Assembly (NCBI GenBank): GCA_963663405.2
Contig: CAXXSM010000076.1
Location: 96,001-160,000, forward strand
Direction: 5' to 3'
Origin: a bacterium
GTDB lineage: Bacteria; Hinthialibacterota; Hinthialibacteria; Hinthialibacterales; Hinthialibacteraceae
DNA: 64,000 bases
Part shown: positions 7,028 to 62,713 of the stretch, piece after piece
Numbering within the stretch: the stretch's first letter is position 1
Layout of the letters: every line of letters begins with the position of its first letter
Program-made: the position numbers and the translations under genes
The notes under the pieces: model-generated
Database searches by the model: none
What the model was told of the DNA's origin: nothing
The model's input: the letters and a program-made list of their open reading frames with translations, nothing else

Positions 7028-8038
7028 ATGATGAAAACAATCTTTCGATTAGGTGTTCTTGTCTTACTTATTCCCATCGTAACAAGCGCGTGGAGTAATC
7101 CAAGTGATATTGTCTGGACGGACGATGTGGAGAATAATCCCGTCATTGGCAGTCCAGGTTTTGGTGACAACCGGGCTTATTATGGTCAGGTTATCTTCGA
7201 TCCGATTGCGAACATCTGGCGCGCATGGTATGACTCCAGCAGTGGTTACGATGTTGGCTACGCTGAATCAACGGATTCAGAGGGAATCAACTGGACGAAC
7301 TACGCGCCGGTTACTGGTTTTACTACTTCGCGTCAAAGCAAAGCGGTTGTTCTGCAAATTGAAGATTCTCTCTTTAGAATGTGGTACATGGCTGACGAGC
7401 GCGACCAGGGATACAGCGTCTACACCGCCGTGTCAAGTGATGGAATCAATTGGGGAGACGATCAAATCATTGAAGGGATCGTGTACGACAACCTTGGTTC
7501 TTCGCAATGGGGACCCGTTGAACGTATCGCGGTGACACAGTTGGAAGATGGAACATTCACAGCGTATTGCCGCTGCGAAGAACCCTTTCTCGACGCCGCT
7601 CTGGAGTGGTTTGATCAAGGTAAAAAATTGTTTCGCTATACCTCAGAAGATGGAATCAACTGGACCTGGGGCGGGTATACCGGCGTCAATGAAATCGAAG
7701 GATTCGAAAGTTTGGAATTTTCCTCCGTCGTGAAACATCCAGACATTGAGGATGTTTGGTACGCCTGGGGAAGCATGGCGAACAGCGAGCGTCCGATTTA
7801 TTCATTTGTTTCAACGGACGATGGCTTGACCTTTGAATTGGATGAAGATCCCGTCGCCAATGTCGGCGATTATCAAACACAGCCCTACAACCAAAACCGC
7901 AATTTCCACGCAAGCGTCACCTACTTAGGAAACGGCGAATGGGTCATGTTCCGGTCGACCGCGGATCCCAAAACCACATCTCGCGCGACGGGTATTGAAG
8001 AAATCTCCAGTCCAATAGATCATTGGTATCTCTATTGA
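7028..8038 (+). CDS. Secreted beta-propeller glycoside-hydrolase-like protein with C-terminal W-motif
   Basis: AAGGAG SD, signal peptide, repeated S.DGINW blade motifs (GH43/32/130-like fold). Ends SSPIDHWYLY. Confidence 0.8.
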   Translation: MMKTIFRLGVLVLLIPIVTSAWSNPSDIVWTDDVENNPVIGSPGFGDNRAYYGQVIFDPIANIWRAWYDSSSGYDVGYAESTDSEGINWTNYAPVTGFTTSRQSKAVVLQIEDSLFRMWYMADERDQGYSVYTAVSSDGINWGDDQIIEGIVYDNLGSSQWGPVERIAVTQLEDGTFTAYCRCEEPFLDAALEWFDQGKKLFRYTSEDGINWTWGGYTGVNEIEGFESLEFSSVVKHPDIEDVWYAWGSMANSERPIYSFVSTDDGLTFELDEDPVANVGDYQTQPYNQNRNFHASVTYLGNGEWVMFRSTADPKTTSRATGIEEISSPIDHWYLY

Positions 8039-8058
8039 TAGGCTTCATCGACGACGCG

Positions 8059-8099
8059 AACGGGATTGATTCGAGACGAATCAATCCCGTTTTTCTTTT
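8059..8099 (+). terminator. Rho-independent terminator
   Basis: Perfect 15-bp stem AACGGGATTGATTCG-AGA-CGAATCAATCCCGTT followed by TTTCTTTT. Confidence 0.9.
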
Positions 8100-8229
8100 C
8101 TGATCGTACGCCAAGTAACCTCGAAGATATCTTTATCGAAATCAAGCAAAGCCGAATTTCCGAAAGGGAATATCATCACAGGATTGTATGAGAAAGAAGG
8201 AGTGAGAAGAAGACTTGGATTCGGCGAAA

Positions 8230-8976: not shown

Positions 8977-9212
8977 GATTTGATATCCCCTGTACGAAAT
9001 TTGTCATAATACATTCAATAGTAATAATTCGTCTTCTGAAAGATATCAAAAAAATACTCAGAACGAGATAACCGATAACATTAAATACAATCCAAAATCG
9101 AAGATGAAGATGAATATGAACATAAGATCATATTACATTCTCTTTTATTCATTATACAAGCAACGAGAACAGTGTGTTATAGGGATTGATTGCGTCCGGT
9201 TGGTTCAAACCA

Positions 9213-12769: not shown

Positions 12770-13336
12770 ATGCGGTATTTCCAAAAAGGTTTCACACTGA
12801 TTGAATTGCTCATTGTCGTCGCCATCATTGGAATTCTCGCGGCGATCGCCGTGCCGAATTTTCTGAACGCCCAGATGCGGGCCAAAATCACCCGCGTAAA
12901 AGCCGATTTCCGGGCGATCGACACATCGTTCCAGAGTTATATGCTCGATAATAACCACTATCCGCCCGATGTCGGTGGGCCTTGCGAGGATGTGCTCGCG
13001 TATTATCGGCTTACGACACCGATCGCGTATATTTCAAATCTCAGCGTTTTCAAGGATTATTTTACAAACGAAAATCCGGAAGGCGCGATCGGCGCGGCTT
13101 GCGAGTTTAACTATTATGATTATGGAATGGTTCCCTACATCACCGAATCTGGCGTGGGTTACGTTGTCATCAGTTTTGGCCCGGACCGGGATCTGGATAT
13201 GGGCTGGAACACAAATTCAATGGACGCGTTGAAACGAAATGACGCCCCCAATTTATCGTTCTTATACGATTCATCGAACGGCCTTATTTCATCCGGCGAC
13301 CTGATCTTAACCGGTCTCGGCATCCACAATAAATAA
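12770..13336 (+). CDS. Pilin-like protein (paralog 2)
   Basis: KG|FTLIELLIVVAIIGILAAIAVPNFLNAQMRAK class III signal, GAGGTG SD, LTTPIAY, FGPD and YDSSNGLISSGD. Confidence 0.95.
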   Translation: MRYFQKGFTLIELLIVVAIIGILAAIAVPNFLNAQMRAKITRVKADFRAIDTSFQSYMLDNNHYPPDVGGPCEDVLAYYRLTTPIAYISNLSVFKDYFTNENPEGAIGAACEFNYYDYGMVPYITESGVGYVVISFGPDRDLDMGWNTNSMDALKRNDAPNLSFLYDSSNGLISSGDLILTGLGIHNK

Positions 13337-19022: not shown

Positions 19023-19752
19023 CTGTTCAAATACTTGATACTATTGGTTTTCCTTGTCGCGAATCAATTCTTCTCATTGACAACCGGGCCGGCTTCGTTT
19101 ATTGGATATAATATCTTATATAATATAATCAAAATTGAAATCAATTTCAAATCGTATGAATCCACAGATAATTATTTTTTTTCTATTTTTTAAAATTGCT
19201 GTTCCTGTCTCATGATCAATTACCGAATGGTTGGGCTTTCCAGATTTAGGCCAAAAAAATACCGTCTATTGCTTTTCACAATACGAGTTATATGAGTAAA
19301 TTGTTTGTTTTTGCGGTATTATATTATTATTAGAAATACATTATCTTTATTTCTATCTTCATAAATGCGCTTTAAATTCCAATGCCTTGTTTCTCACGAG
19401 GCTCAATCCCCAACTCTCTTCGATAATTTTCTTTCTAATTCATTATAATGGGGAAAAAAGAAAACGCTACATTGTATCTGCAGGTTATTTGCTCCCCCTA
19501 TTATATCCACTGGAATTGAAGAGTATCGTGAATCCTGATTTTCGATAAAATATATTTTATAATATGAATCTAATTAATTTGAAATCCTGGACACCGTCTT
19601 TTCTTTCAAACCGCAATACGAATTTGAAGAAAGGAAACCTAAGGATACAAATCGATGTATTATGTGGAACGCTGGAGGTTGGTTTTTCATTTAACACTTA
19701 CAAGAAAAAACAGAATCGCCTGAATAACAAGGCGTCACGAGGGAGAAGAACA

Positions 19753-20409
19753 ATGGGGAAAAAAAGGAATGTATTGCATGGATTCACGTTGATTGAACTG
19801 CTCATCGTCGTCGCCATTATTGGAGTGCTCGCGGCGATCGCCGTTCCGAATTTTCTGAATGCGCAGATCCGCGCGAAAGTGTCGCGCTGCTACGCCGATA
19901 CAAAAGCGCTCGGAACGACCATTGAAATCCTGCGGATGGATAAAGGCGTGATGCTGGTCGATTGGTGGGACGACGACCGGGAATGGGGTCATGAGCGTCT
20001 CCGCACGATCTTCAACATGGTCGGCGCTGGAGACTTCGAAGCGCGGGGCCGTAACGCCGTGCTTGCGCCGTTGACGAGTCCTGTCAACTACATGTCATCT
20101 ATTCCAAAAGATCCGTTTCAAAGCCCGGCGATCGATGGCGGCTGCTACTATTATTACCTCGACAACGATCCCGAAGATCCAACCGACGATCACGATTTCC
20201 CCGCCTACAAAGAAGGCACAGCCGAAGTGTATGGCAACAAACCGTTGAAATCGGGAGAATGGGCCATCGGCGGTATCGGCCCTGATGGGGAATGGTACGG
20301 GGCGACATGGACCGACGCCACCTCCAACGCCCGTGGCAGCAAATACGATCCCAGCAACGGCCTCTCCAGCCGCGGCGATATCATGCTCACCTCCCGTGGG
20401 ATCGATTAA
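19753..20409 (+). CDS. Pilin-like protein (paralog 3)
   Basis: Start reassigned to MGKKRNVLHG|FTLIELL (GAGGGAG SD). LTSPVNY..IPKDPF, IGPD and YDPSNGLSSRGD. Confidence 0.93.
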   Translation: MGKKRNVLHGFTLIELLIVVAIIGVLAAIAVPNFLNAQIRAKVSRCYADTKALGTTIEILRMDKGVMLVDWWDDDREWGHERLRTIFNMVGAGDFEARGRNAVLAPLTSPVNYMSSIPKDPFQSPAIDGGCYYYYLDNDPEDPTDDHDFPAYKEGTAEVYGNKPLKSGEWAIGGIGPDGEWYGATWTDATSNARGSKYDPSNGLSSRGDIMLTSRGID

Positions 20410-24871: not shown

Positions 24872-26752
24872 CTACTTCACTCGTGGAGCGAAGATCTCAG
24901 CGAAACGATCCGGTTTGTCTTCATTGCGGACGATATCCACGTATCGCGGTCCTCCATCGTATTGGATGGTAACAGTTTCGAACACTTCATCTTTTAAAAG
25001 GAGCAGTTCAACCGATCGTGTTGTTGGGCTGTCCGCGATCGCGTCTTTCAGGCGGTTTTCGCTGAATTTTTTTCCATTTACACCGATGATTTTGACGCTG
25101 TCGTAAAGTCCCGCTTGATCCGCTGGGCCGCCTGGGCTGATTTCCGTGATCTCACCAGTAGTTGAGACGCGCATACCTAATGATGTGAGAGAATGATCTT
25201 TATCATAATCTGTTGGTTTAGGTGAATATTCAATCCGGTAGCCTAGACGATCGAGAACAGTCAGGGGGAGTTCATCATGCCATCCGCGCACGCGGTCTTC
25301 GATCAGCGCTTCCCAATCGTATGGAAGCAGCTCATTTAGTATTTCAACGATGTCTTTTTCTTCATAACCCATGAGCATTTGGTTTTTATCGTACCGGCCA
25401 AGAAACCGCTGGATAAAATCGTCCAGGCAGAGTTTCGAATCGCTTTCTTCCTGGAGAATGGTGTCGATTTCATACCAGAGGAGCGCGCCTTCAAAATAGT
25501 AGTCTTGTGGCCGGTATAATCTCCGCCAATGCTCACTTCCCCGGCGGCGCAGATAGGAAGATGACGCGGTGTCTTCTAGATTGATGGAACGGCGGCCTTT
25601 CTGCAGCATCAAAGAGACAATAGTCTTGCCCACGCCTACCCATTCATCCCGCAGGCCGCCTTCGAAGGATGTTCGATCCTTGGTTTCAAACAGGCCGGAG
25701 CGGGTGGTTAGAACAACGCCGATGTATTGATCCAATCCTTCATATACCCATAGCAATCGAAGGTCTTTCGGTACTTGATAATCAGGAGTGGCCATCCCTT
25801 GGGGACGGTGGTATTTACCGCACCAGCGATGCCCGTATTCGTGCGTAATGAGGTGGCCGGTGACGCGCAGCTGGTCTTCTTCCAGGCCGTTGGCGCCAAC
25901 AACGTTCAGACTTGATCGCATATGCTCTAATCCGATAAACGGCAGGTTGTCACTTAACATCAGCAGGAAATGGTAGTCATAATCGTGTCGCTTACCGAAC
26001 ATCACCATCGCTTCCGCAACCATCTTGCGGATTTTATCCAACGTTTTTTCATCGGGGTGAAGCCTTGGTTTCGATTCCGCTAAGAGATGGAGAAAGTGGG
26101 GCGTTCCACCGTCTGGCGTTACATCGATAAAGCGATACCACTTACCGCAGACCAACGGGCTGTCGACGAGTTCACGGATAGACACTGGATTAAACTGAAT
26201 GGTACCTTCGTCCTCTTTTTGAGCGGTTAATGAGGAGCCCCATTTCCATTCTTTGGGTAATTGAAGAGTGAGATTGACATTGATATCGCTGATATCGTAT
26301 CCCTTTGGATAGAGGAGGCAGGTGTTCCATGCGATGATTCCAAGCTGGGATGTGCCATGCGTGTCGACACCCAGCGAATATGCTGGCGCCGCTTGGTTGC
26401 AGATGTAGGTTGTATCGGCCTGAATCCGGATTACGCCGTTTGGAATATCGATCAGGAAATGAAATACGTCATGGGGATCGCGGGTCCAGGATAGGCGTTT
26501 TCCATCTTCTGTGGAGAAGAAAATTTCGGCCAGATTTTGAATCGGGCTTTTGGGACCGTGCACACCTTCAACCCATTTGGGGTAATAGAGATCGAAGACA
26601 GGGCCGCTGACATGATAGGTGGAAGACGCTTTGAGCAAACCACGGGGTAGATCCCTCGCGTCCACATCCAGCGTCATTGTCGCCGCCGCGCTGGAGGAGA
26701 CGGCCGCTGTGATTAGAAAGATGGCTAATAAGAGACATTTCTGATTCCGCAT
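24872..26752 (-). CDS. M61 glycyl aminopeptidase family protein with PDZ domain
   Basis: GLEH, HEYGH, LWVYEG and GGPADQAGL (PDZ). Signal peptide from MRNQK. Confidence 0.88.
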   Translation of the reverse strand: MRNQKCLLLAIFLITAAVSSSAAATMTLDVDARDLPRGLLKASSTYHVSGPVFDLYYPKWVEGVHGPKSPIQNLAEIFFSTEDGKRLSWTRDPHDVFHFLIDIPNGVIRIQADTTYICNQAAPAYSLGVDTHGTSQLGIIAWNTCLLYPKGYDISDINVNLTLQLPKEWKWGSSLTAQKEDEGTIQFNPVSIRELVDSPLVCGKWYRFIDVTPDGGTPHFLHLLAESKPRLHPDEKTLDKIRKMVAEAMVMFGKRHDYDYHFLLMLSDNLPFIGLEHMRSSLNVVGANGLEEDQLRVTGHLITHEYGHRWCGKYHRPQGMATPDYQVPKDLRLLWVYEGLDQYIGVVLTTRSGLFETKDRTSFEGGLRDEWVGVGKTIVSLMLQKGRRSINLEDTASSSYLRRRGSEHWRRLYRPQDYYFEGALLWYEIDTILQEESDSKLCLDDFIQRFLGRYDKNQMLMGYEEKDIVEILNELLPYDWEALIEDRVRGWHDELPLTVLDRLGYRIEYSPKPTDYDKDHSLTSLGMRVSTTGEITEISPGGPADQAGLYDSVKIIGVNGKKFSENRLKDAIADSPTTRSVELLLLKDEVFETVTIQYDGGPRYVDIVRNEDKPDRFAEIFAPRVK

Positions 26753-26790
26753 TGTGTAGATCCTTTCCATGACAGAATTGTAAATGGATT

Positions 26791-27543
26791 CTAATGGATT
26801 GGCCACGAATTACCATACCATTGGCGCACGATGGCTTCGCTGGTGTCAAATAGCTGACAGATTAAAGTGGGATTGAGAACGTCCTGTGGATTGCCCTGCG
26901 CGAGGATACGGCCTTGATAAAGGGCGGCCACCTGTGTGGCGATGCGCCGCGCGGAATGGAGATCGTGGGAGACGTATAGTATGAGTTTTCCGGTTTTGTA
27001 TAACTTGACAAGGATGTCTTCGAAAATGATCTGATGCTTCAGATCGAGGAAAACTGTTGGTTCGTCCAGGAATATTACGGGGGTGTTCTGGACAATGACT
27101 TGCGCCAAATAGACCCGCTGCCGTTCGCCTCCGCTCAAAGTTGAGAGTTTCCGGTTTCTAAATTCCTCTATATGACATAATTCAAGCGCGTACTCAAGGC
27201 GCTGTTTTGAAGTTTGCGGTGACTCGATGTGGTTCCAGGGATGGGTCGCGAGTGAGACGAATTCAGCCACGCGGTATCCTTGGACAGAAGGCATGGATTG
27301 GGGTAAATAGGCGATGATCCGGGCGCGTTCCATGCGGGGGAGACTTAATAAATCATACTCCTTGTGATAAAGCCGATCCGCATGGGTGGGGATTAATCCA
27401 GCGGCGGCGCGGAGGAACGTGCTTTTTCCCGCGCCGTTGGGTCCAACGATCGCGAAGACACCGGCGTCCGGGATGTCGAGAGAGACAGAATCGAGGATCG
27501 TTTTGTTGGCGATGGAAACGGAAAGGTTTTGGATCGATAGCAT
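26791..27543 (-). CDS. Iron-siderophore/cobalamin-type ABC ATP-binding protein (FepC/BtuD-like)
   Basis: GPNGAGKST, LSGGERQRV, LDEPTVFLDLKHQ, SHDL. Confidence 0.88.
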   Translation of the reverse strand: MLSIQNLSVSIANKTILDSVSLDIPDAGVFAIVGPNGAGKSTFLRAAAGLIPTHADRLYHKEYDLLSLPRMERARIIAYLPQSMPSVQGYRVAEFVSLATHPWNHIESPQTSKQRLEYALELCHIEEFRNRKLSTLSGGERQRVYLAQVIVQNTPVIFLDEPTVFLDLKHQIIFEDILVKLYKTGKLILYVSHDLHSARRIATQVAALYQGRILAQGNPQDVLNPTLICQLFDTSEAIVRQWYGNSWPIH

Positions 27544-27835
27544 TCAATATATCCTTTTTTGAACGGGGGCGCGCCGTATGAATAACAAGCAATAAGAGAA
27601 CAATCACATAAGAGATTGCGTCAATGGGTGACACGCAGAATTTCCCATTGACTGAAATTATAATTTAAGAGGACTGAATTCCAAAAGACTCACAATGAAT
27701 GAAGGATGGGGAATCGATTGATTTCATGTTGTGAGTGAAATGTGGTTTTTCATTGGTTCCATGCAGTGTGATCCATGATACAATGTTCTGTGGAATAATC
27801 GATTTAATTTGTTTGTGCAAGGGAGATGTGAAATA

Positions 27836-28486
27836 ATGAATATGCGAGTTAGGAATCACTGGTTGGGTTTTACGTTGATTGAATTGCTGATTGTTGTCGC
27901 GATTATCGGGATTTTGGCGGCGATCGCCGTACCCAATTTTCTCAATGCGCAGATCCGCGCGAAGATTTCCCGTACGAAAAGCGATGTGCGGATGTTGGAT
28001 GACCAAGCCGTTATCCGAAATATGGATTGTGGATTATGGTTGATTGATGGCAACGATACTGGACAAGCTGATCATTGCGAGTTTGAAGCCGGTTATAATT
28101 TCTGGGGCAAGACACCGGCGGAAGCGCAGGTCGATACCCAAGGGGCGCTTGGGGATAATTTCTTTAACGGACAGATTTACCAACAATTAACAACCCCCGT
28201 CAATTACATCAATTCGATCCCGGTGGATGTGTTCACCAAGGGATTGTTTTACGGTTATGAGGATCGCGGGTGTTCTAATGCGCCCATTGGCACGCATTAT
28301 CTCTTCTTTGCCTGCGGGCCGGATGGGGATACATTTGATTGGTACATTGGCCGTCATGCGACTCCATACGTTTCATCGAACGGGCTGACGTCCAATGGAG
28401 ATGTCTGGCGGTCCCGTAAACTGCGTATCCGGCCGGACGAAGGCGACCTGTATCAACAAGAGATATTCCAAGATTACTGGGAGTGA
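27836..28486 (+). CDS. Pilin-like protein (paralog 4)
   Basis: LG|FTLIELLIVVAIIGILAAIAVPNFLNAQIRAK, LTTPVNY, CGPD and YVSSNGLTSNGD. Confidence 0.93.
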   Translation: MNMRVRNHWLGFTLIELLIVVAIIGILAAIAVPNFLNAQIRAKISRTKSDVRMLDDQAVIRNMDCGLWLIDGNDTGQADHCEFEAGYNFWGKTPAEAQVDTQGALGDNFFNGQIYQQLTTPVNYINSIPVDVFTKGLFYGYEDRGCSNAPIGTHYLFFACGPDGDTFDWYIGRHATPYVSSNGLTSNGDVWRSRKLRIRPDEGDLYQQEIFQDYWE

Positions 28487-28852: not shown

Positions 28853-28931
28853 TCATGCGGCACAAATCACGATACTATATTTGTTATAGCAAAATCGATT
28901 TGATTTGTCGGCGTTAGGGAGAGATGGAATC

Positions 28932-29745: not shown

Positions 29746-31215
29746 ATGAGAAATTGCGCGATACTGAATCCTACACGTATTCTTCAAGGTTCTTTTATCC
29801 TATTCATTGTTCTATTTCATTTTGTGGATGCTTCTTGTATTGAATACACAGTGAAGCAAGATGGGACGGGTGATTTCACAACGGTTCAAGAGGCGCTGGA
29901 CGCCGCGTCTTCTGGCGATGTTGTGACCGTGTCCGGCGGTTCATATGTTGAAGATGTGAGTATTGGACATTTCAACGTTCCTTCATTGAAAAAAGATAAT
30001 ATTACTTTCCGCGCCGCCGAGGGAGAAACCGTCGAAATTATTGCGGCCAACACCAAAAACCGGGCGGGTGGATTGACACAAGCTGGATTCGATCCAGGCC
30101 CCGCCGACCGCGCCGGCTTTGTTTTGAATGGAGATAACGCTCTCATTGAAGGAATCAGATTCATCCAACCTTCCGCTGAGTTGAATAATATCGATCAAGC
30201 CTTGGCGGTTATCGTTGGCAGTTCCAATGTCACATTCCGGAATTGTGAAATTGTGGGACCTTCCCCTGATGACGGCCCCGCCTCGAATACGGAAGGGGAT
30301 TTGGTTGGATTGGCCATTTCCCCGATCGACGTATTCGCGCTGAGTCAAGGAACGGGTGTACCTCCAACGAATCTGACTATGGAAAACTGCCGGTTCCATC
30401 ATGTTGAATTCGGATTCGGTACCGAAGATATGTTGAAAACGGGTTTGCCGCCTGAGACAACCTTGCGGAATTGTGAATTTTATTACAACCGCAATGGAGT
30501 TGAAGTGAATGATGGAACTGTCCATCTGTTTGATTGTAATATCCATGACAATAGCGTCGGCGTTCAGGCCGCTGATGACCAGGCGTTTCTCACCAATTGT
30601 GTCATTTGGAATAATGGAAGACATGGCGTGCAGCTGGATGAAGGGGAGATTGATGCGGTTGAATCCGCTCAGAATCCAACCGTAGTTATCGATCAGTGTG
30701 AAATCAGAGACAATGGCCTGGATAATGAAGGCGCCGGAATCCAGATGGAACTCGGTACGCTGACAGTGAAAAACACGGTTCTCTCGAATAACGTGAACGG
30801 CCAAGTGTTTATCTCTTCCTCCAATAAAGGAGACTCGACGGTAACGATCGATCATTGTGATCTCTATGAATCGATTATGGGATTCGCTATCGCGACTACG
30901 GAAGATCTGATTAGTTTAGCTGATATCACGATTACTAATTCCATTCTTGTTGATGAAATCGGCGTCATGAATAATATGGGAGTGTTAGCGGAATTTACCG
31001 TAGAGTATTGTGATTTCTTCGTGACTGACGAGCCATTTGTTGGCGCATCCATCGTTTCGAATACTATTCTAAACATAGCGCCTGGATACGTTGATGCGGA
31101 GAGTGGAGATTTTTACCTTACGCCGGATTCCCCACTGACTACGGCCGCGCAGGATGGGGAGTACATTGGATCGAAAGGCGTTAAAACGCCAGTGGTGAAT
31201 TGGATGGTTCACTAA
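29746..31215 (+). CDS. Secreted right-handed parallel beta-helix (pectin lyase-like) protein with C-terminal W-motif
   Basis: YTVKQDGTGDFTTVQEALDAA N-cap, repeated .NC.I..N rungs, DFYLTPDSP...IGS. Ends KTPVVNWMVH. Confidence 0.85.
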   Translation: MRNCAILNPTRILQGSFILFIVLFHFVDASCIEYTVKQDGTGDFTTVQEALDAASSGDVVTVSGGSYVEDVSIGHFNVPSLKKDNITFRAAEGETVEIIAANTKNRAGGLTQAGFDPGPADRAGFVLNGDNALIEGIRFIQPSAELNNIDQALAVIVGSSNVTFRNCEIVGPSPDDGPASNTEGDLVGLAISPIDVFALSQGTGVPPTNLTMENCRFHHVEFGFGTEDMLKTGLPPETTLRNCEFYYNRNGVEVNDGTVHLFDCNIHDNSVGVQAADDQAFLTNCVIWNNGRHGVQLDEGEIDAVESAQNPTVVIDQCEIRDNGLDNEGAGIQMELGTLTVKNTVLSNNVNGQVFISSSNKGDSTVTIDHCDLYESIMGFAIATTEDLISLADITITNSILVDEIGVMNNMGVLAEFTVEYCDFFVTDEPFVGASIVSNTILNIAPGYVDAESGDFYLTPDSPLTTAAQDGEYIGSKGVKTPVVNWMVH

Positions 31216-46289: not shown

Positions 46290-46832
46290 TTAAAATCCCA
46301 GTTCGTAAATATCCCCGATGCTTACCAAACCATTCGAGCTGTCATATTCCATATGAATACCAAGCGCTCCTTCCGCTGTGCTGGGTTCGTATAATCCATT
46401 CGGGGCGGCTCCTAATAAGATATACGTTCCTTTGGCGTCGCGTACGCGTGGCATATGATCAAATTCTCCTCCATCCCGTTTTCCATCCGCTACATCAATC
46501 GGCCAATAGGGGTAGACATCTCCATCCCGATCCGTGAGTCCTTTGGGGCGGAACGGATCGTAGGGGATTGAGGAGAGGTAGGGAGTGGGTGTGGTGAGGC
46601 GGATCAGGCGGGTTAAGCGTCCTGAAATGCCTGGTGAGTAGGACGGGTATTCGTTGTTATCGAGCCGATATTGCGCCAATCCCATTTTGATGGCGCGCAT
46701 GTCGGATACGCTCCGGGCGACTTTAGCGCGGATTTGCGCGTTCAGAAAATTGGGGACGGCGATCGCCGCCAGAATCCCAATAATAGCCACGACAATCAGA
46801 AGTTCGATCAATGTGAATCCGTTTGCTTTCAT
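46290..46832 (-). CDS. Pilin-like protein (paralog 6)
   Basis: Start reassigned to MKANG|FTLIELL (AGGTG SD). LTTPTPYLSSIPYDPF and YDSSNGLVSIGD. Confidence 0.93.
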   Translation of the reverse strand: MKANGFTLIELLIVVAIIGILAAIAVPNFLNAQIRAKVARSVSDMRAIKMGLAQYRLDNNEYPSYSPGISGRLTRLIRLTTPTPYLSSIPYDPFRPKGLTDRDGDVYPYWPIDVADGKRDGGEFDHMPRVRDAKGTYILLGAAPNGLYEPSTAEGALGIHMEYDSSNGLVSIGDIYELGF

Positions 46833-46864
46833 GTTTTCACCTGATAGTGTACCGGGATCGAGGT

Positions 46865-46878
46865 AGTATACGTATACA
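46865..46878. promoter_or_regulatory. LacI-type operator upstream of pilin 6
   Basis: Near-perfect palindrome AGTATACGTATACA between a minus-strand TTGACA (46901-46906) and the pilin start. Weaker site TTTTAACGTATACA at 46970-46983. Confidence 0.72.
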
Positions 46879-47040
46879 TTTTTTTGTGATTTTATCCATT
46901 TGTCAAGAGAATCTATCACAATTTTATGAAGAAAATATTAAAAAAGAAATTTCTTGGGATCAATTGGTTTTTTAACGTATACATGCCTTTGTATCAGAAT
47001 TATTTTGGATATTTTATTTCCTGTTTTTGGAAAACAATGG

Positions 47041-47078: not shown

Positions 47079-47137
47079 AAAAATGCTTTAAATATTCTAT
47101 GAAGGACCAAATTCTATCCAGAAAGGGTGAACTCAAA

Positions 47138-48610
47138 ATGATGGGGCTGAAAAAGGGATTTGGATTGTTGATTTTAGGGCTGCTTGCCGTGAATGTTGGG
47201 CTGGCTCAAGAGTGGAGCGCCGTGTATACGGAGGATTTTGAAGCGGCCGCTGTTGGGGAGAAGCCCGAAGGCTGGACCGGTGGCGATGGGGACGATACGG
47301 ATGATGTCAGCATCTTTTGGGAGGTCTCCGATTTCGTGGGTTTTGATAACGAGCCATCCGGAACCACGCATAATCTGTCCATCGGTGACGACAGCGATCA
47401 AGGAAACGCCGTCATTGCCATGCCGTTTCCGGCGCAAACGGAAAACTTCAAATTGACGATTTACGTAGGAAACAATCGTCCAGGAAGTTCGTTTCTGCGA
47501 ATCGCTTTGGGCGATTCGGAGGATGGCGGTCTTGATGGCGCGGGAAAATTGGGAATCGGGTATTTGAATATGAACATGAATACAACAAATGGCCTGCTTC
47601 CCAACTTCAACAGCGCTGTGGATGGGATCACTCTCCCTCATGGCAATGCGGCGCTGCATAAAGTGGAATATTACGTGGCCCGGAATGAGGAGAATACCGC
47701 GTATACACTCGCCGCCGTTACGATCGATGACATTGCGGTTCTGCCCGCCACGCCAACGGAGAATGCGCGTACTCAGTTGAATCTAATGTATTTAATAACA
47801 AGCACCAGCGGGACCAATGTCGATCTCACAATTGATGATATCACCATTGAAGTGGGTGGTTCTGGAATCGAAGCGCCGCCTGATATGGAATTCACGCCAT
47901 CGGATACCGTTTATGAAGAAACCTTTGAATCCATCGATTTGAATGGTGTTCCAGAGAATTGGACGCCGGGCGATGGCGATGATTCCGATGGTTCGGTTGT
48001 GGTTTGGGGCGTGTCGGATATGACTGATTTTGAGGGAATCCCGGATGGTTCCACGAAAACGATGTATCTCCTAGATGAATTCGATAGCGGGAACATTATC
48101 GCTGAAGTGGCGATCGACGCGCAGGACGCTCCCATCCGTTTTAGTTTTTATGTGGGGACAACGGAAACCAGTGAAGGAGATGAAGACGATGATACTGTGC
48201 GCGTGGCTATGGGGGATAGCGCCGATGGAGGCATCGCATCAAGTGGAAAGGATGGGATCGGATTTTTGGATGTCACGTTCCGGCCAATCACGGGGGATCT
48301 GAAACTGGATTTTAGTAATACGGAACATCCATCCGGATTTACTGTGCCTCATGCGGATGGGCAGATGCATTTGATAGAATACGTTGTCTTCCGGAATGAG
48401 GATGGTACCGCGTATGAAATGCGCAAAGCGTTTGTTGATGGCGTCGAGGCCTATCCGTTGTCCTATGTGGAATTCCAGCGCGCACAGATCGATCTGCTTC
48501 GTTTCATCACCTATACCGGTGGATTTCATCATATTTATTTAGATGATGTGCGTGTTGAAATTGGCTCCCAGGCAAAATTGACGGAAATTGTGAATTGGAG
48601 TTTGTTCTAG
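47138..48610 (+). CDS. Secreted acidic protein with two tandem jelly-roll-like domains and C-terminal W-motif
   Basis: Signal peptide and internal duplication (VY.E.FE....P..WT.GDGDD.D...W.VSD). Ends TEIVNWSLF. Confidence 0.82.
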   Translation: MMGLKKGFGLLILGLLAVNVGLAQEWSAVYTEDFEAAAVGEKPEGWTGGDGDDTDDVSIFWEVSDFVGFDNEPSGTTHNLSIGDDSDQGNAVIAMPFPAQTENFKLTIYVGNNRPGSSFLRIALGDSEDGGLDGAGKLGIGYLNMNMNTTNGLLPNFNSAVDGITLPHGNAALHKVEYYVARNEENTAYTLAAVTIDDIAVLPATPTENARTQLNLMYLITSTSGTNVDLTIDDITIEVGGSGIEAPPDMEFTPSDTVYEETFESIDLNGVPENWTPGDGDDSDGSVVVWGVSDMTDFEGIPDGSTKTMYLLDEFDSGNIIAEVAIDAQDAPIRFSFYVGTTETSEGDEDDDTVRVAMGDSADGGIASSGKDGIGFLDVTFRPITGDLKLDFSNTEHPSGFTVPHADGQMHLIEYVVFRNEDGTAYEMRKAFVDGVEAYPLSYVEFQRAQIDLLRFITYTGGFHHIYLDDVRVEIGSQAKLTEIVNWSLF

Positions 48611-55265: not shown

Positions 55266-56360
55266 TTATTCGGTTTTCGGCTCCATGGATGTTTCGAATT
55301 GCATGGTGTCGGCTTCAGGAACGATGACTAACGCTCCCATTTTACGTTCTCCATACGAATTCCGCGAATAGCAGATTATGATCGGCTTGCCGATTTGGGC
55401 TGTGATTGTGTTGGAGAGGATCGTGTCATTCGAGTTATGACTATAATAATATCGAGTTGAAGACTGCCGTTTGACTTCGATATTCATTTGATGTTCCTGC
55501 TGTGAGCTATCATCGGTATCAAAGCGGATATTTAAGATGAAGGGACCAATGGGGGATTCGATTTCTCCGGAAAGAGAGGAGGTGCCGAACCAGTACCCAA
55601 TGGTCTGAATCGGAGGCATGCCCAAGAAATTAACTAGATGCATTTTCAGTTGTTCGGGTAAATGTCGAAACTGCGCCGCATCGATGTTTTGTGTGAAAGT
55701 TTCGGCCTGGTCCCACTGTAAATCGATGATTTCCGCGCCGGGGATTTGTTCAACCAGTTCGACAATGGCGGCGTTCGATTCCGCCTTGCCTTGGATCAAT
55801 ATTGGTTTCATTCTCTCTCGTTCATCTGTCATGTTTCCCGATCTTGGGAGTCTATCAAAATAGCGTTCATCCAATTGAATGATATCCGAAATTTGCATGC
55901 GTGTTTCATCAAGAGTCTTTAACAACTCGGTGGTGAACGTATTTGAAAGGGTTAGTACTACAAGAGAGAAATCTTTCCATTGGTTTTCATCATTAGGCGT
56001 TTCAAACATATAGATCCGTAATATTAACGATGATGTATCCTTCGTTTTTATATCAGGAACGTCTAATTGGGATATAAGGTTTTTAATTCTATCCATTTGA
56101 TTCGCAGGCGTGTTAATAATCAGGCGGTTCGAATGCCGATCCTGATGAATCTCATCAATCCCAAAAATATCTCTAATGAGCCGTTCTAGATCACTTATGG
56201 GATAGTATTCAATAGGAATAATCTGAGTCTCCATCTCACCTTGATCTAGATCGCTCTTAGACGATGAGGAACTGAAACCGCCGTTTTGTGATTGGGACCA
56301 GGCTTGATTGAACGCGCACAATACGAATGCCATCAAGAAATGTACGATTCGAGTGTTCAT
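55266..56360 (-). CDS. Secreted protein with a single secretin N-terminal (NolW-like) domain
   Basis: Signal peptide, then ETQIIPIEY..ISDL..LI....DRHSNRLII.....MDRIKNLISQLDVP. No secretin barrel follows. Confidence 0.65.
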   Translation of the reverse strand: MNTRIVHFLMAFVLCAFNQAWSQSQNGGFSSSSSKSDLDQGEMETQIIPIEYYPISDLERLIRDIFGIDEIHQDRHSNRLIINTPANQMDRIKNLISQLDVPDIKTKDTSSLILRIYMFETPNDENQWKDFSLVVLTLSNTFTTELLKTLDETRMQISDIIQLDERYFDRLPRSGNMTDERERMKPILIQGKAESNAAIVELVEQIPGAEIIDLQWDQAETFTQNIDAAQFRHLPEQLKMHLVNFLGMPPIQTIGYWFGTSSLSGEIESPIGPFILNIRFDTDDSSQQEHQMNIEVKRQSSTRYYYSHNSNDTILSNTITAQIGKPIIICYSRNSYGERKMGALVIVPEADTMQFETSMEPKTE

Positions 56361-56379
56361 GGTAATTTCTCCTTCTTCT

Positions 56380-56910
56380 TTATAAGTTGCAGACAAAATA
56401 GACTTCTCCATGATCCAACGTTCCATACAATACCCGTTGGGGGGAAGACGCTTCCTTTTTTTTCTCTAATACGATTTTTGGATTTTCGACCTGGGGATAG
56501 ATTTCATTGATGATTTTTCCTGATATGATCTGCGTATCTCCAGTTCTTTCCATTGATAATGCAGGGGCGGGCGCCGCATTTGTATCTTTCGTGACTTGTC
56601 CATTCATATTACTTACTGTTAAGAAACATCCAATACATATTCCAAGAGCAAATGTTACAAATGGTTGTGTGAGAAACGTGTAGATCTTTGAGAACCATGA
56701 AAATTGACATGAATTTTGTGTATGATCGCGCCATATATTTTCAAAGATTTCAGCTTTATCGTTCGCTGACAAATCGGGAACCGGTATTTGATCCAGTTGT
56801 TCGAAGAGCGAGCCATACGTCTCGTATTCTTTCATTAATTCTTCTTCCAGACGGAATTCACTCTCAAAAAGAAGTTTGAATTCTTCGTATGACAATCGTG
56901 GACGCTGCAT
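56380..56910 (-). CDS. Putative single-pass anti-sigma factor
   Basis: Immediately downstream of the ECF sigma gene, with one TM segment (FVTFALGICIGCFLTV). Confidence 0.65.
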   Translation of the reverse strand: MQRPRLSYEEFKLLFESEFRLEEELMKEYETYGSLFEQLDQIPVPDLSANDKAEIFENIWRDHTQNSCQFSWFSKIYTFLTQPFVTFALGICIGCFLTVSNMNGQVTKDTNAAPAPALSMERTGDTQIISGKIINEIYPQVENPKIVLEKKKEASSPQRVLYGTLDHGEVYFVCNL

Positions 56911-56921
56911 TTTACAAACCT

Positions 56922-57491
56922 CTACCGTGTGATTTTATCGGCTAATCGTTTCCGCAAAGCGAGCAAAGAACGCCGGATATGAGTTCGAACAGTATTCTCG
57001 CTGCAACGCAGTGTTTGAGCGATTTTGGCCGTTGGCATATCCTCATAATAGCGAAGGATAAACGCTGTCCGCTGTGTTACGCTGATTTTTTGTAACGCGT
57101 GAGTGATCCATTCTTGAATTCGAGCCTCCTCAAGTTCTTCGTGGACCGTTTGACCCTCTGCAATCAACATCGAAAAAGGAATCGTTTCCGATATGATTCG
57201 ATTATTATTCTTGATGGCTTTCCGGTAAAAATCGATCGCTGTATTCACCGTAATCGATTTTAACCAAGGAACAAATGGTTTTCCATCGTGAAACGTATTC
57301 AAATTGCGAAACACTTTAAACCAGACTTCTTGTACGCAATCCTTGACGAGTGAAGTATCGAGCACGATCCGGTAGCAGATGCGATGTACGCAATCGACAT
57401 GCCGGTAGTACAAGAGAGCCGCGGCGCTCCCATCTTCGTTTTGAATCGCCTTGATCAGGGCGTTGTCTGAAATCTGTGATTCCCGTTTCAT
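56922..57491 (-). CDS. ECF RNA polymerase sigma factor
   Basis: Region 2 DCVQEVWFKVF..F.PWL.SI..NTAIDF.R and region 4 QRTAFILRYYEDM...IAQTL.CSENTVRTHI.R. Confidence 0.92.
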   Translation of the reverse strand: MKRESQISDNALIKAIQNEDGSAAALLYYRHVDCVHRICYRIVLDTSLVKDCVQEVWFKVFRNLNTFHDGKPFVPWLKSITVNTAIDFYRKAIKNNNRIISETIPFSMLIAEGQTVHEELEEARIQEWITHALQKISVTQRTAFILRYYEDMPTAKIAQTLRCSENTVRTHIRRSLLALRKRLADKITR

Positions 57492-57596
57492 GGTTCTATT
57501 AATTACTATACGAAAGGCAATATGAATATGGTGACAATTGAGGAAGAAATAGGAAGGAGAGTCAAGTGAGTTGATATTTACGAATAGAAAAGGCTG

Positions 57597-57748
57597 GTTC
57601 ATCCAGCAAGTGAGTACTTATTCAGTTCTCTAATAAAGATCTTTATCATCCGTCGCTTAAGAAATCAGATAAATACTGATCAATACGTTATCCGAATGTG
57701 GTCAGGAATTATACAAGGGCAGATGAAAAACCTTGCCCTTGCCACCCT
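57597..57748 (-). repeat. ~150 bp degenerate direct repeat, copy 2
   Basis: TTCATCC..AAGTGAGTACT...TATCCGAATGT...CAAGGGCAGATGAAAAACCTTGCCCTTGCCACCCT. Confidence 0.7.
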
Positions 57749-57828: not shown

Positions 57829-60363
57829 TCAATACAATCGCCAGTCATCAACGGATACCGGTAGAACGCTGTCGAGATAGCCGCTGCGCAGTTCAACAAA
57901 TTCGCGCAGGATTTGATACGAATCAACAATCTGCTGGCGCCGTCTTGATTGCGATCGATTGAGATAGTCTTCCAAGAGGGCCAAGTCGTCGAGCAGTATT
58001 CCTTCATCGCGATCTATTTCAGTCAACACAGGGGCGTCCGGAATTAGAAACTGGCGGTTCAGTTCGACTCGGAGACGTCTTAGATATTCCTCATGAATCC
58101 CCGTGTCTTTGTGGAAGAGGCCGGTGATGTCTCCAGGACGGCGTGAGCCGTGCTCCGCTTGACCATTCAGGGGAAAATCAGGAGGCATCCGGTAGAACTG
58201 CGCGTTGCTGTCGGTGAATCCCCACGTTTTATCAAGATCCCAGGGGATGATTTCCCAGTGCCCACCGTCTTCTTCGGGATTCAAGTACATCCAATTATTG
58301 TTGTGGAAACCATCCCAATTGCTGCATAGTACGGAGACGACGCTGTAGGTCAGAAATTCCTCTACATCGAGATATTTTTCGATTGCTTCACGGCGGCGGC
58401 TCGCAAGATTGGTATTCAGCGCGTTAAGGAGGGTTTGGATGCTTTCGTTCCCTTCGTCTTTATTCGTATGTTTGATGAAACCGGTGTTGTGTTCCAATTT
58501 ATAAAGGTCCATACTGGAATCGCGATCATTCATCTCTAAGAATATTTCATTGACCTGCTGGACGATCAATCGCTGGGTATGGGATTCCTGCGCCGTTCCC
58601 GGATTCTCGATGACGCGGTACCAATCAACGCGAGGCGCCAGTATTCCATTTTGACGGTAGAACCAGAATCCCAGATATTCGCGGAAAGGCCCTGTTGGTC
58701 CAGCCGTGCCGCTGAATGAGGGCGCTTCGGGAATGATGTTGATCGTTCTGTCTCCCCGGAATTCTTCGCCTTTGTTGAATTTGATCTTGTTCCCATTTTC
58801 GGAGCGGATATACCGGACGCCGTCGAATACTTCGAGCTGATTCCCCTCCGGAAGATATGTCACCGCCGCATCGTATTGGTTGGCGCTTTCCGGCAGGGAA
58901 GAGGAGATGGAATCGTAGATCCACAAAATTGGCAGTATTGATTCGATCTCTCCGTCAAAGACGAAATACGATTCGAAGGGATGGCGTTCCGCCTCGTGGG
59001 GGAGCCTTAGAATTTGCCCATCGGTCCGTTCAATCTCGATGTTATATCGGATCAAGGATTGAGAAGGGAAGGGAGGCAGTACGGCTTCCAGGGTTACGGA
59101 ATCTATAGATCGGCCGGCGATGGTCATGGGGATTCGATCTTGGTTGTCCTGTGAGACACCGCTGGGTAATACTGTTGGGGCGAGGACAAAGTCGGTACTG
59201 TCCGATAGCCAGACGTTAAAGCCAACCAACGCGATCACGTTTTGTCCCACATGGAGTATGTTCCGGGCGTTCCCTAGTTCAATCTCTGTAAGGGTATCCG
59301 ATTCATGGTTCTCGACGGCCAGTGATTCATGTGTATATGGATCCGGCGCGGTGTGGCGCGCTGCCTCATTTCCGTTAATGTAGCAGATAAATCCATCGTC
59401 GTGATAGATACTTAGCGTCAATGCGCCTAGTGATGCGGGATCGTCTACAGTGAATTCCCGGCGGATGTAAAATGTCGTGTAGGATCCACGCATATCCGGT
59501 AATAGTGTATTTACTCGCTCGGTGTCTCCGTATCCAAAACCACCCGGCCCTTGTTCCCAGGATGAATCGTCAAAATCGAGCGATGTCCATTCCATTCCTT
59601 CGGATGGTTCTGACAGTCCCTTCCAATAGCGCCATGTGTCATTGGCGTTGATCAGGGCGTTTGGATTTGATGCTGCGCTTTTTCCCACACGTTCGTATAG
59701 AAGATAGGCGGAATTGATGATCTCCGGTGAGGAAAGACCGAACCGCGCGTGCACTTCTTCTGCTGAAGTTGGATTTCGAGGGATTCTTTCATGGGAGATA
59801 ATTAAAGGGCGGGGAAGTGTTCCATCGACTGAATTACGCGCGCCAGGAGTGCCTTCATCCCGAAGCGAAGCGCGCCAGGAGTGAAAATCCCCCGCTGGCA
59901 GATCCCATGCGATCCGTTCGAGTGTGCGTCCATACCCGTCCGCTCCACGCGGCCAGGGGGAATCATCGTCGTAGCGGAAATTCTCGACTTGTGTCCCGTC
60001 CGGGCGTTGGAGAGTTAACCGTTCGCCTCCATTGGAGAGTTTTCCATCGAATGGGCCTAGGACGGAATAGGATTTATTACGCCAAGTCCGGTGTGTGGGA
60101 ACGCGGGCCACAATTAAATAGGCCCCAGCGCTCAAACTGGTTCCTTGGGGGAATGTATAGGTTACGCCGTTCGTTAAAGCGTATCCAGACAGATCCACGG
60201 CGCCCGGTCCAGGATTGTAGATCTCAATAAATTCCCGAAGTCCACCACCTTCATCCCCTTGATCAACCGGGTCGTAATTGAGTTCGTTAATAACTACATC
60301 TCCCCATCCAATCATGGGACATACCATTAATATCGCGAATACAAACAATGGAATCCGTTTCAT
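57829..60363 (-). CDS. Secreted lamin-tail-domain + CotH kinase family protein with C-terminal W-motif
   Basis: VVINELNY..EFIEIYN..VDLSGY..LSNGGE (LTD) and NWDGFHNN..WEIIPWDLD (CotH). Ends PVSVDDWRLY. Confidence 0.88.
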   Translation of the reverse strand: MKRIPLFVFAILMVCPMIGWGDVVINELNYDPVDQGDEGGGLREFIEIYNPGPGAVDLSGYALTNGVTYTFPQGTSLSAGAYLIVARVPTHRTWRNKSYSVLGPFDGKLSNGGERLTLQRPDGTQVENFRYDDDSPWPRGADGYGRTLERIAWDLPAGDFHSWRASLRDEGTPGARNSVDGTLPRPLIISHERIPRNPTSAEEVHARFGLSSPEIINSAYLLYERVGKSAASNPNALINANDTWRYWKGLSEPSEGMEWTSLDFDDSSWEQGPGGFGYGDTERVNTLLPDMRGSYTTFYIRREFTVDDPASLGALTLSIYHDDGFICYINGNEAARHTAPDPYTHESLAVENHESDTLTEIELGNARNILHVGQNVIALVGFNVWLSDSTDFVLAPTVLPSGVSQDNQDRIPMTIAGRSIDSVTLEAVLPPFPSQSLIRYNIEIERTDGQILRLPHEAERHPFESYFVFDGEIESILPILWIYDSISSSLPESANQYDAAVTYLPEGNQLEVFDGVRYIRSENGNKIKFNKGEEFRGDRTINIIPEAPSFSGTAGPTGPFREYLGFWFYRQNGILAPRVDWYRVIENPGTAQESHTQRLIVQQVNEIFLEMNDRDSSMDLYKLEHNTGFIKHTNKDEGNESIQTLLNALNTNLASRRREAIEKYLDVEEFLTYSVVSVLCSNWDGFHNNNWMYLNPEEDGGHWEIIPWDLDKTWGFTDSNAQFYRMPPDFPLNGQAEHGSRRPGDITGLFHKDTGIHEEYLRRLRVELNRQFLIPDAPVLTEIDRDEGILLDDLALLEDYLNRSQSRRRQQIVDSYQILREFVELRSGYLDSVLPVSVDDWRLY

Positions 60364-60737
60364 TGTTTCAATCTTTCCTCCGAGTATCTTTTTAAGTATA
60401 TCGAAGATTGAAAGATCGTCAAAAGTATATGCTTTGGTAAACTTGCCAAAATTCATTGGGATTCTTCTAGAAGCGAAATCAGACGCCTTGAGACCGAAAT
60501 ACTATGAACGGATGAACCTCTTTTTTGTCTATCTAAATATGAATGTGGCTTGATATGAATGTGGCTTGGATTGTTCGAGTGAATCGAAATCTGAATATCC
60601 CGATCAATGTGTTTGTGTATAATTTTGTAAAAAATCGAATGGTTGATACGATACGATACAATATTTTACATTGCTTTATTGAATTAAGAATGAATGCAAA
60701 TTTAATAAGACAGATTGAAATATAGGAGAGAATAATT

Positions 60738-62713
60738 ATGCGATATTCCTTTTTTTTCATTTTAACGTTCTTTTTAGCCTTCCCTGGTTTCTCGCAAACA
60801 GACGTTCCTACAATCAACGAACCGATATTAACCATTCCTTACGGTTTCGAACCGGGTGCGTTATGTTTGACTTTTTCGCCGGATGGCAAACTGCTTGCTG
60901 GTTTCGGTGATGGCGCCATAAGAATCATTCGAAGTCCAGACGTATCGTATAATGACGAAATTGTTCTGATCGATCCAGAAGCAGCTATTACAGCCATTCA
61001 TCTTTCTCCAGACAATCAAATCATTATAACAGGTAATGCCAAAGGACAATTAAAATTATGGGATTTTGAAACAAACGAATTTCTACAACAACTTGGTGAG
61101 CATGATTCTCCAATCCGGGAGGTTGCATGGTCGCCGGACGGTTCTTTCATTATTAGCGGAAGTGATAATGGTGTCGCTTTATTGTGGGATGCGAACAGTA
61201 GAACGTTACTGGAGCGATTTCCCCTATCTTCTCAAGAAATAATTGGTGTTGGTTTCTCCTCGGATAGCAGCCGTTTTTTCGCCGCATCGTCCGATGGCGT
61301 TCTTAGACTCTACGATTCGAACGATCCATCCAATCTGATTCAAGATCTTCAAACAAATATTCCAATTTATACTGCTTGTTTATCTCCGAACGCCGATCGA
61401 ATTGCCGCGTGCGGTGAAGAAAAAATCTTATTATGGGAAAAAGAAACAAACGAATGGAACGATATAATCATCCGTGAATATCAAACACCGGGCGCCGCCT
61501 GTGAATTTTCTTCGGATGGAAAAAGCCTCTATGTTGCGATGGAAAAGGCCTTCGTTTATTTTGACATTGAAACGAGAGAAAGACATGTATATTATCTTCC
61601 GGAGGATAACGATACTTGTCCTATTACCGATATGGCCGTGTCGGACCGATTTCTTGCGGATAATAGTGAGATGGTTTATGCGCTCGCTTATCGATGCGGT
61701 AAAAGCCGCCCCGTTGAAATTCGGACGACTAAAGAAAAACAATTAGTGAGTACTCTTCGAAATCCAAGTTTTTACGGACAACAACATATTTGCGATTTAT
61801 CAGAAGATGGTTCGCAATTGCTTCTAGCGATGGGGCGCTGTAAGGATAGAAAAAATCCAAACTATTATTCTTCGATCCTTATCCGAGATCCCAACACCGG
61901 TGAAATCGTGCAAGAATTCAAAGAGCATGGTGAATGGGGAACGGGGAGTTTTTTACCAGGAAGCAAGCAATTTATAAGCGGCAGCAATCTTGGTTTGCGG
62001 TTGTGGGATATATCAAAAACAGATCCTGTGTTCTCTTATCCTGATTATACAAAGAAATCTGGGACATTGCTGTTTCTCCATCGGGAGACCGGATGGCGGC
62101 CGCTAGTTATTCAAACACACGCGATGTCGTAGACGTCTTGGATTTGACTACTGGCGAAATATATTATTCATTCAGTGAGGGAGACGATATTATAACTTCG
62201 GTTGAGTTTTCCCCCAACGGCGCATCCATTATCGCAGGTGGTTACAATAAAAAGATCTACGTTTTTAACGCTAGCGATGGACAATTAATTCATTCGCTGG
62301 ATTTGAATGATTCCTACCCAGAAATTTTTGACATTGCTTTTGCGCCTGATAGTAAAACGTTTGTTACTGCCAATAATTTCAACGATGTTTCGGCATGGGA
62401 TTATGAAACAGGTGAATTGAATATCATATTTGATTTTGGTCATTACCCCTTCGCATCAGTGGAAGTGTCGCCGGATGGAAAATGGGTAGCCGTGGGTTGT
62501 CTATCTGTCTATCCGGTATTTATCGGTGATATGAACACGGGTAAATTGATTGCAAAATTGGAGGGCGGTCAGGATTCGGTCCAAAGCATTAAATTTTTCC
62601 CCGGCGGGAATAGACTCGTCACCTCTGCGGCGGACGGTTCCGCGATGATTTGGGATTTAAATGGACTCTTATCCTCCTCTAATGTTGAAAATTGGGATCT
62701 GTATGATAAATAA
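60738..62713 (+). CDS. Secreted WD40-repeat protein with C-terminal W-motif, one frameshift near 62051
   Basis: Signal peptide and FSPDG..LWD repeats. Restoring one A in ACAAAGAAATC gives TKEIWDIAVSPSGDRMAAAS and joins the two ORFs. Ends SSNVENWDLYDK. Confidence 0.85.

Follow-up and report, generated by a model that had tools for sequence, protein, structure and literature searches.

A nine-residue C-terminal tail on unrelated exported proteins of Hinthialibacterota as a candidate sorting signal

The C-terminal sorting signals described so far are either whole domains, as in the type IX secretion system (T9SS), or a motif followed by a membrane helix and a basic tail. The T9SS type A domain (TIGR04183/PF18962) of the Bacteroidota is a beta-sandwich of 70-100 residues that forms the very end of many soluble, Sec-exported enzymes and adhesins unrelated to one another, with dozens to hundreds of them per genome. 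LPXTG, PEP-CTERM, GlyGly-CTERM (rhombosortase) and MYXO-CTERM (myxosortase) mark the C-termini of dozens of exported proteins throughout a lineage; passages of PMC11980579 describe the tripartite signals as consisting, in this order, of a motif, a transmembrane helix and a basic cluster, and as being cleaved by a membrane enzyme of their own, and state that MYXO-CTERM and GlyGly-CTERM clients cross the outer membrane by way of type II secretion (the T2SS). Here we describe a stretch of 64,000 nucleotides (hereafter the window; positions 96,001 to 160,000 of contig CAXXSM010000076.1, assembly GCA_963663405.2) from a bacterium of the Hinthialibacterota, in which five exported proteins end in a bare nine-residue tail that differs from both types.

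The consensus [TSV]-x-[VI]-x-[DNE]-W-x-[LIV]-[YFH] is found in all five proteins, the genes for which are given below in window positions.

6986..8038, plus strand: exported five-bladed-propeller glycoside-hydrolase-like protein, likely start 7028/7031; tag SPIDHWYLY encoded by 8009-8035
29746..31215, plus strand: exported right-handed beta-helix protein; tag TPVVNWMVH encoded by 31186-31212
47099..48610, plus strand: exported protein, internally duplicated and without a Pfam family; tag TEIVNWSLF encoded by 48581-48607
57829..60456, minus strand: exported LTD-CotH protein; tag VSVDDWRLY encoded by 57832-57858
60738..62713, plus strand: exported WD40 propeller gene, frame-broken; tag SNVENWDLY at 62678-62704, followed by DK

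The original prediction, made on this stretch from its letters, was that five secreted proteins of different folds share a C-terminal motif, and all five tails are present in the sequence as quoted. The gene descriptions were corrected in two respects: the LTD-CotH gene lies on the minus strand at 57829-60456, and the WD40 gene is not a single open frame. The latter comprises two overlapping open reading frames (ORFs), 60738-62132 and 62093-62713. The frame shifts by one base in an A-rich stretch near 62050-62060, which may reflect an assembly error or mark a genuine pseudogene; the tail is retained on the downstream piece. The folds are likewise as earlier described. Pfam identifies the beta-helix (Beta_helix, 9.5e-18), the LTD with a complete CotH profile (49-322 of 322) and the WD40 repeats. 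The first protein has no Pfam match, and its propeller is seen in an AlphaFold2 (AF2) model (pLDDT 86), which in Foldseek resembles GH159/GH130/GH43-type propellers (E 4e-12, TM 0.57).

Pfam analysis of the five window proteins (as six translated pieces) and 21 further tagged proteins, the genome sample consisting of 23 tagged proteins and one adjacent pseudopilin, reveals that the last domain stops 13-22 residues ahead of the stop codon. The last matched residue of CotH is 861 of 875, 14 residues before the stop, and a DUF5123 match on the beta-helix protein stops at residue 467 of 489. In the propeller model the last strand spans residues 315-322 and none is predicted in 323-335, the last 13 residues, where confidence drops to 64 in the last block. 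The end of the Pfam domains well before the stop and the lack of a strand in this model indicate that the tail is appended rather than an integral strand, in agreement with the earlier claim that it is set after the last domain; as far as the model goes, it is not folded back into that domain.

The tail is not confined to the window. The source genome (8,442,966 bases, 170 contigs, 82% complete) was represented by 6505 genes from a simple in-house ORF caller; these gene calls, and the hydrophobicity-based signal-peptide test used below, are crude heuristics. The motif W-x-[LIVM]-[YFH] forms the exact end of 145 of the 6505 proteins, an enrichment at C-termini of approximately 50-fold over the 2.7 that its internal rate (933 internal matches) would predict. 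It lies one residue short of the end in 28 further proteins and two residues short in six. The strict nine-residue motif is found 79 times within two residues of the C-terminus and seven times internally, while residue shuffling gives 3.8 anywhere. A chance origin is excluded. Far from being rare elsewhere in the genome, the motif (145 exact ends plus the 28) is much more abundant than the five window cases, as the original prediction required.

A logo of the 145 exact tails shows T/V/S at -9, S/P/A at -8, V/I at -7, D/N/E at -5, W at -4, L/V/I at -2 and Y/F/H at -1. Of 99 tails that otherwise conform to the motif, 88 have tryptophan at -4; at -1, R (six) and Q (three) are likewise more frequent than expected. 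Where a residue follows the motif it is a single K, E, R, D or similar, mostly charged (28 of 173 tails with one extra residue). Among 126 tails the 27-nucleotide coding sequence takes 125 different forms, and every synonymous codon of Val (four) and Leu (six) occurs, from which it follows that selection acts on the peptide and not on a DNA repeat; a repeat artifact at gene ends is rejected on the same count. As a separate observation, 83 of 126 tails are followed by a TAA stop, a codon that terminates 46% of all called genes.

The carriers are predominantly exported. A signal-peptide-like N-terminus was detected in 140 of 173 tagged proteins versus 2239 of 6332 untagged ones (odds ratio 7.8), so that the tag is not equally frequent on the two classes, as had been predicted. 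In a stricter tagged set the figure is 136 of 166; the 30 that fail comprise seven split-gene-like cases, two at contig ends, two Tat proteins, 11 short ORFs and eight unexplained. The two clear Tat-signal carriers are sulfatases, and the claim that the tag is absent from Tat proteins therefore fails genome-wide. Their existence also implies that recognition should follow membrane crossing and cope with folded cargo. Lipobox-like N-termini are depleted among the tagged genes (3/166 versus 116/1659 other exported-type genes). After removal of the tail, the 166 tagged proteins fall into 73 BLAST clusters, 48 of them singletons, and the Pfam families on those examined are LRR, LamG, SnoaL, PD40, NHL/SGL, sulfatase, esterase, FG-GAP, CotH, beta-helix and WD40, or none. 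The carriers checked are soluble folds and none is a barrel.

Orthologues retain the tail while the sequence ahead of it drifts. Among orthologues of the window propeller (53-100% identity) 29 of 30 keep a W-x-[LIV]-x end, with a linker that differs in length and sequence. A second family, whose tagged member has 692 residues, was aligned from 34 orthologues (676-705 residues): W is invariant, V nearly so, and the linker is variable; the tail ends this protein at 21 of 21 loci in 20 genomes. Relatives differ in what they carry at the same place. Two distant relatives of the propeller (P0040 and P0041) possess a C-terminal T9SS type A sorting domain (TIGR04183, 47 and 44 bits). The 692-residue protein offers the clearest example: its homologues at 50-64% identity, some labeled Verrucomicrobiota, are 738-781 residues long, the tail being replaced by a C-terminal domain of approximately 70 residues that ends in FYRLxK. 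This domain matches nothing in Pfam or NCBIfam and may be a further undescribed sorting domain. The CotH homologues that bear the tail are all from this phylum, where paralogues also keep it, whereas those from records titled Verrucomicrobia/Limisphaerales and from other metagenome-assembled genomes (MAGs) stop at the domain end or carry other C-terminal extensions. The tail thus occupies a slot that other bacteria fill with C-terminal sorting domains. The pattern of the 70-residue domain, recorded here for its own sake, is ...LRLSWP..GY.LQ...W...FYRLxK (P0178-P0282; loci L024, L050, L053, L057, L064, L081 and L083).

A more trivial explanation would be a structural cap, a quirk of composition with no signaling role, or repeated DNA at gene ends. 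This we regard as extremely improbable: the tail is present on 73 unrelated clusters, it lies beyond complete Pfam domains and forms no strand in the propeller model, it is absent from homologues in other phyla, and neither the 125 different coding sequences among 126 nor the roughly 50-fold C-terminal enrichment would be expected of it.

The distribution of the tail was examined in 35 species genomes of the phylum with a degenerate DNA pattern for the tail plus stop codon, the same pattern read backwards serving as control.

Own genome (G000): pattern 98, control 11
Other 25 genomes of the order (f1-f3): pattern 17-102, control 2-16
Genus g27 of another order: pattern 25-36, control 3-8
G001: pattern 2, control 4
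G027: pattern 7, control 3
G028: pattern 9, control 7
G029: pattern 16, control 6
G030: pattern 13, control 5

The tail is abundant in most of this 35-species phylum; f1-f3 and g27 are tag-rich, and G001, G027 and G028 tag-poor. The tag-poor genome G001 carries a variant, ...V[AP]SWR[LV]Y, on six large proteins of 883-1024 residues (L151-L157), and further ends of ...EVASWRLY on a 167-residue ORF and ...AAAWQLYR on a 128-residue ORF. In a 260-kb sample of G028, the 92 signal-peptide-like ORFs showed neither the tail nor another end that recurs. In six genomes of other phyla the pattern matched 0-3 times versus 3-6 for the control, that is, no excess. The orthologues bear the NCBI names "Candidatus Hinthialibacter antarcticus" or "Candidatus Omnitrophota"; according to a passage of PMC9324843, OLB16/Hinthialibacterota was formerly placed in Omnitrophota. 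On these names Hinthialibacterota is the most likely identity of the phylum. Among 81 genomes of the phylum that holds an NCBI-labeled Omnitrophota MAG, none lies more than seven above its control (highest count 8, control 8). The prediction of a lineage-restricted tag is borne out, with an excess in one phylum and none in 87 genomes of other phyla.

The tail thus exists, is exclusively C-terminal, is selected at the protein level and sits on unrelated exported proteins in place of the known sorting domains of their relatives. Its probable role is that of a hitherto undescribed address label, by which proteins reach or cross the outer membrane. That it serves as a label for address or docking in some form we consider fairly likely. 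Under the mechanism that we propose, proteins would cross the inner membrane by Sec or Tat, the nine-residue phylum-specific tail would be read in the periplasm, and it would then route the folded soluble proteins to an outer-membrane step, either release or surface display. The most likely route would be one of the several T2SS-type (pseudopilus plus secretin) machines of this lineage, with their more than 100 GspG-like pseudopilin paralogues. We infer that the tail is a sorting signal and, more weakly, that its route is T2SS-like; the T2SS specifically is to be taken as a tentative assignment.

A T2SS-type machine is the best available candidate on two grounds: it is the only folded-protein outer-membrane exporter found here, and tagged genes are linked to pseudopilin genes. 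The source genome has nine secretin matches, which fall in at least three T2SS-like operons, one Tad locus, one type IV pilus locus and three odd secretin loci; GspD/E/F/G/J/K-type genes occur in operons on C118, C29 and C133, and the C29 operon has genes for three small unknown proteins placed between the gene for a GspL-like protein and that for GspD. With regard to what a T2SS substrate would need, the core genes (GspD, GspE, GspF, GspG and minor pseudopilins) are present, as are export signals on the cargo (the 136 of 166 above, by the crude test). Approximately 130 prepilin-type genes were identified, some with partial GspG matches, a massive expansion of this family, and sites with the prepilin N-terminal motif number 56-205 per genome in the order. 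Within the window these genes are as follows.

27809-28486 and 28905-29585, plus strand: two prepilin-type (GspG-like) pseudopilin genes (NCBIfam prepilin N-terminal domain, partial GspG/PilA), directly upstream of the tagged beta-helix gene with a 160-base gap
46290..46919, minus strand: prepilin-type pseudopilin (GspG match, 2e-18), divergent from the tagged gene at 47099-48610
12770..13336, plus strand: prepilin-type pseudopilin
19564-20409: prepilin-type pseudopilin copy, with the prepilin motif at residue 72

An unbiased look at the genes within three positions of tagged genes found only the pseudopilin family enriched (42/134, p 1e-8). A pseudopilin directly adjoins 23 of 166 tagged genes versus 63 of 1659 other exported-type genes, and a prepilin-type gene is the next same-strand downstream gene in 11 of 166 versus 14 of 1659 (odds ratio 8.3, p 4e-6); these 11 carriers belong to 10 different clusters. 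The association recurs in another genus (G012), where a prepilin motif lies within 400 bases downstream on the same strand at seven of 100 listed tag sites, with 0.27 expected and a maximum of three in 2000 randomizations. For the 692-residue family, a pseudopilin is found within 516 bases downstream at 11 of the 21 loci, and the orthologues of that particular pseudopilin share 70-85% identity, compared with at most about 54% for other listed family members. Across the 35 genomes the tag excess correlates with the prepilin count (rho 0.66, or 0.40 per Mb), related genomes not being independent. One could picture the tail as a linear, portable T2SS-type secretion signal, read by pseudopilins or in the secretin vestibule, with the hundred-odd GspG-like paralogues acting as adaptors matched to their cargoes, the genes of some lying immediately after those of the cargo; in this particular form the proposal is rather doubtful.

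Several points weigh against routing by a T2SS. The link is statistical and partial: pseudopilin adjacency covers only about 7% of tagged genes and could reflect shared "secretome islands". Tag-poor relatives also hold 28-76 prepilin sites. Two secretin queries found matches in 35 of 35 genomes, as pseudopilins did, and since G001 moreover carries its rare variant, there is no clean presence/absence contrast. We know of no linear signal in classical T2SS substrates, nor, to our knowledge, has a linear, portable secretion signal ever been found for T2SS. The 28 of 173 tails with an extra residue would not all suit a reader that needs a free carboxylate at a fixed place. The heuristic gene calls and signal-peptide test, and the 82% completeness of the genome, count here as well. 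Lastly, no reader protein was found among the secretin, pseudopilin-complex and PDZ candidates looked at. Outer-membrane export or surface docking by a lineage-specific signal had been predicted; the lineage-specific tag stood up, and the export or docking role is a probable one that lacks a reader among these candidates.

The individual candidates fared as follows. The secretin on C60 was rejected as reader because the 34 other genomes lack an orthologue of it (best identity 23-35%), and that on C18 likewise, its orthologues being restricted to G001 (tag-poor), G014 and G033. None of the annotated secretin loci showed a PDZ protein of the GspC type. Prediction of a complex between residues 32-186 of the pseudopilin (28-row alignment) and the last 47 residues of the tagged protein encoded upstream of it (34-row alignment) ended in "no answer" (score 0.00, mark 0.32), which speaks neither for nor against binding. 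PF07596 (DUF1559), considered as the identity of the pseudopilin family, had no matches in the source genome, an uninformative search.

Some further secretin-related features were observed. The C60 secretin (G000:C60:10457-14822, L096) has an unknown protein and an S8 subtilase as neighbors. Open frames of 2029-3966 residues with a secretin domain occur in the phylum's other order (G028:C6, G030:C377, G032:C11, G033:C148 and G034:C9). In the window, directly downstream of the tagged CotH gene and on the same strand, lies the following.

55266-57602, minus strand: ECF sigma factor, small anti-sigma-like ORF and 386-residue protein with a Secretin_N domain

The pseudopilin neighborhood can also be read differently. 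The tail might hold proteins that have already been exported non-covalently on a cell-surface receptor, for instance a fiber made from the expanded pseudopilin family or an outer-membrane protein, much as a minimal dockerin would. The evidence of position and distribution is the same as for an export signal; many carriers are binding-type or enzyme modules (LRR, LamG, CotH, sulfatases and the glycosidase-like propeller), tagged genes are co-oriented with adjacent pseudopilin genes, and both faces of the tail are conserved (-9, -7, -5 and -4, -2, -1), as expected of a groove-buried peptide. On the other hand, no receptor was identified and nine residues are very short for stable anchoring. Such docking, which we hold to be rather unlikely, and an export signal are not exclusive readings, nor do the present data separate them.

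The hydrophobic and aromatic residues at the very end of the tail suggest yet another reader. C-terminal hydrophobic tails are the ligands of the PDZ domains in Prc/Ctp and DegS, and a periplasmic PDZ protease or chaperone (S41 C-terminal processing peptidase, HtrA/DegS-type) might recognize the tail to control maturation, quality control or a stress signal rather than localization. The genome encodes four HtrA-type, three S41-type and two M61 proteins, all with PDZ regions, as well as RseP and one beta-helix-PDZ protein. These 11 annotated PDZ proteins are, however, all of ordinary types, and none was retained as a special reader. Furthermore, the protease families are near-universal whereas the tail is confined to one phylum, and PDZ grooves usually read -1/-3 (p0 and p-2 in PDZ numbering) whereas the positions conserved here are -1, -2 and -4. 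A free hydrophobic residue at a fixed place is found in 145 tails, and 28 of 173 end with one extra, mostly charged residue; the sorting domains at the same place in relatives are left unexplained by this reading. We consider this improbable.

Two neighboring genes of the window touch on these subjects. The first ends in a similar motif and was rejected as a sixth window tag; it looks like a chance match, with neither the upstream V/I nor a signal-peptide-like N-terminus.

26791..27543, minus strand: ABC-type ATPase ending in NSWPIH, without V/I at -7
24872-26806, minus strand: exported M61 glycyl-aminopeptidase-type protein with a weak PDZ-like C-terminal region, adjoining the ATPase gene

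If the tail is an address label for the outer membrane, as we favor, then a bare nine-residue peptide on 2-3% of the proteome, common to a candidate phylum, would represent a novel means of directing proteins that are exported. It would make the secretome of these uncultured polymer degraders predictable from sequence alone, with approximately 170 proteins per genome flagged as extracellular or surface-exposed. Were the route a T2SS-type machine, the tail would bear on the long-standing question of how type II secretion picks its substrates, and would give experimenters a short transferable tag. New here are the pseudopilin association, the exclusion of T9SS with positive controls, the C-terminal-domain replacement in Verrucomicrobiota-type homologues and the rare variant of G001.

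How, then, does the tail compare with known sorting signals? Pfam and NCBIfam scans of the window proteins and the 21 further tagged proteins match nothing on the tail itself, which upholds the earlier view that no characterized family covers it. Literature searches on Hinthialibacterota/OLB16, sorting signals, T2SS and pseudopilins gave listings, abstracts and passages, supplements apart, that contain no description of it. The original prediction also held that the tag lacks a transmembrane helix or basic tail and is not a T9SS C-terminal domain, and this is confirmed. In its placement on the extreme C-terminus of many unrelated exported soluble proteins it is like the T9SS type A domain, from which it differs in having nine residues rather than a beta-sandwich of 70-100. 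TIGR04183/Por_Secre_tail has no match in G000, G012 and G008, one below-cut-off match in G003 and none on the window proteins, while two Bacteroidota controls gave 100 and 150 tail-domain matches. SprA (TIGR04189) is similarly without a match in G000, G012 and G008 and reaches 29.5 bits in G003 against a cut-off of 200, compared with 2382 and 2402 bits in the two controls; PF14349 has no match in G000. T9SS is absent from the searched genomes of this lineage, and the tag is not a member of that system.

With the LPXTG, PEP-CTERM, GlyGly-CTERM and MYXO-CTERM signals the tag shares lineage-wide occurrence at the C-terminus of dozens of exported proteins. Unlike those tripartite signals, tagged proteins stop 0-2 residues past the motif (145, 28 and six cases) with no helix and no invariant Cys or Gly, and there is no basic cluster at the end, the last residue being Y/F/H in the 145 exact tails.

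The beta-signal read by BAM consists of alternating hydrophobic residues ending in an aromatic, and a YxF end is sensed by DegS; the tag likewise has a terminal Y/F/H preceded by hydrophobic positions. The proposed likeness to the beta-signal is not supported, since beta-signal carriers are barrels, the tagged proteins checked are soluble folds (by Pfam and the propeller model), and the conserved positions -9, -7, -5, -4, -2 and -1 do not alternate through the tail. A further counterpart by position is the domain of about 70 residues ending in FYRLxK, which takes the same place on homologues of one tagged family, at 50-64% identity, and on those of CotH; there it is a whole domain, and here a peptide.

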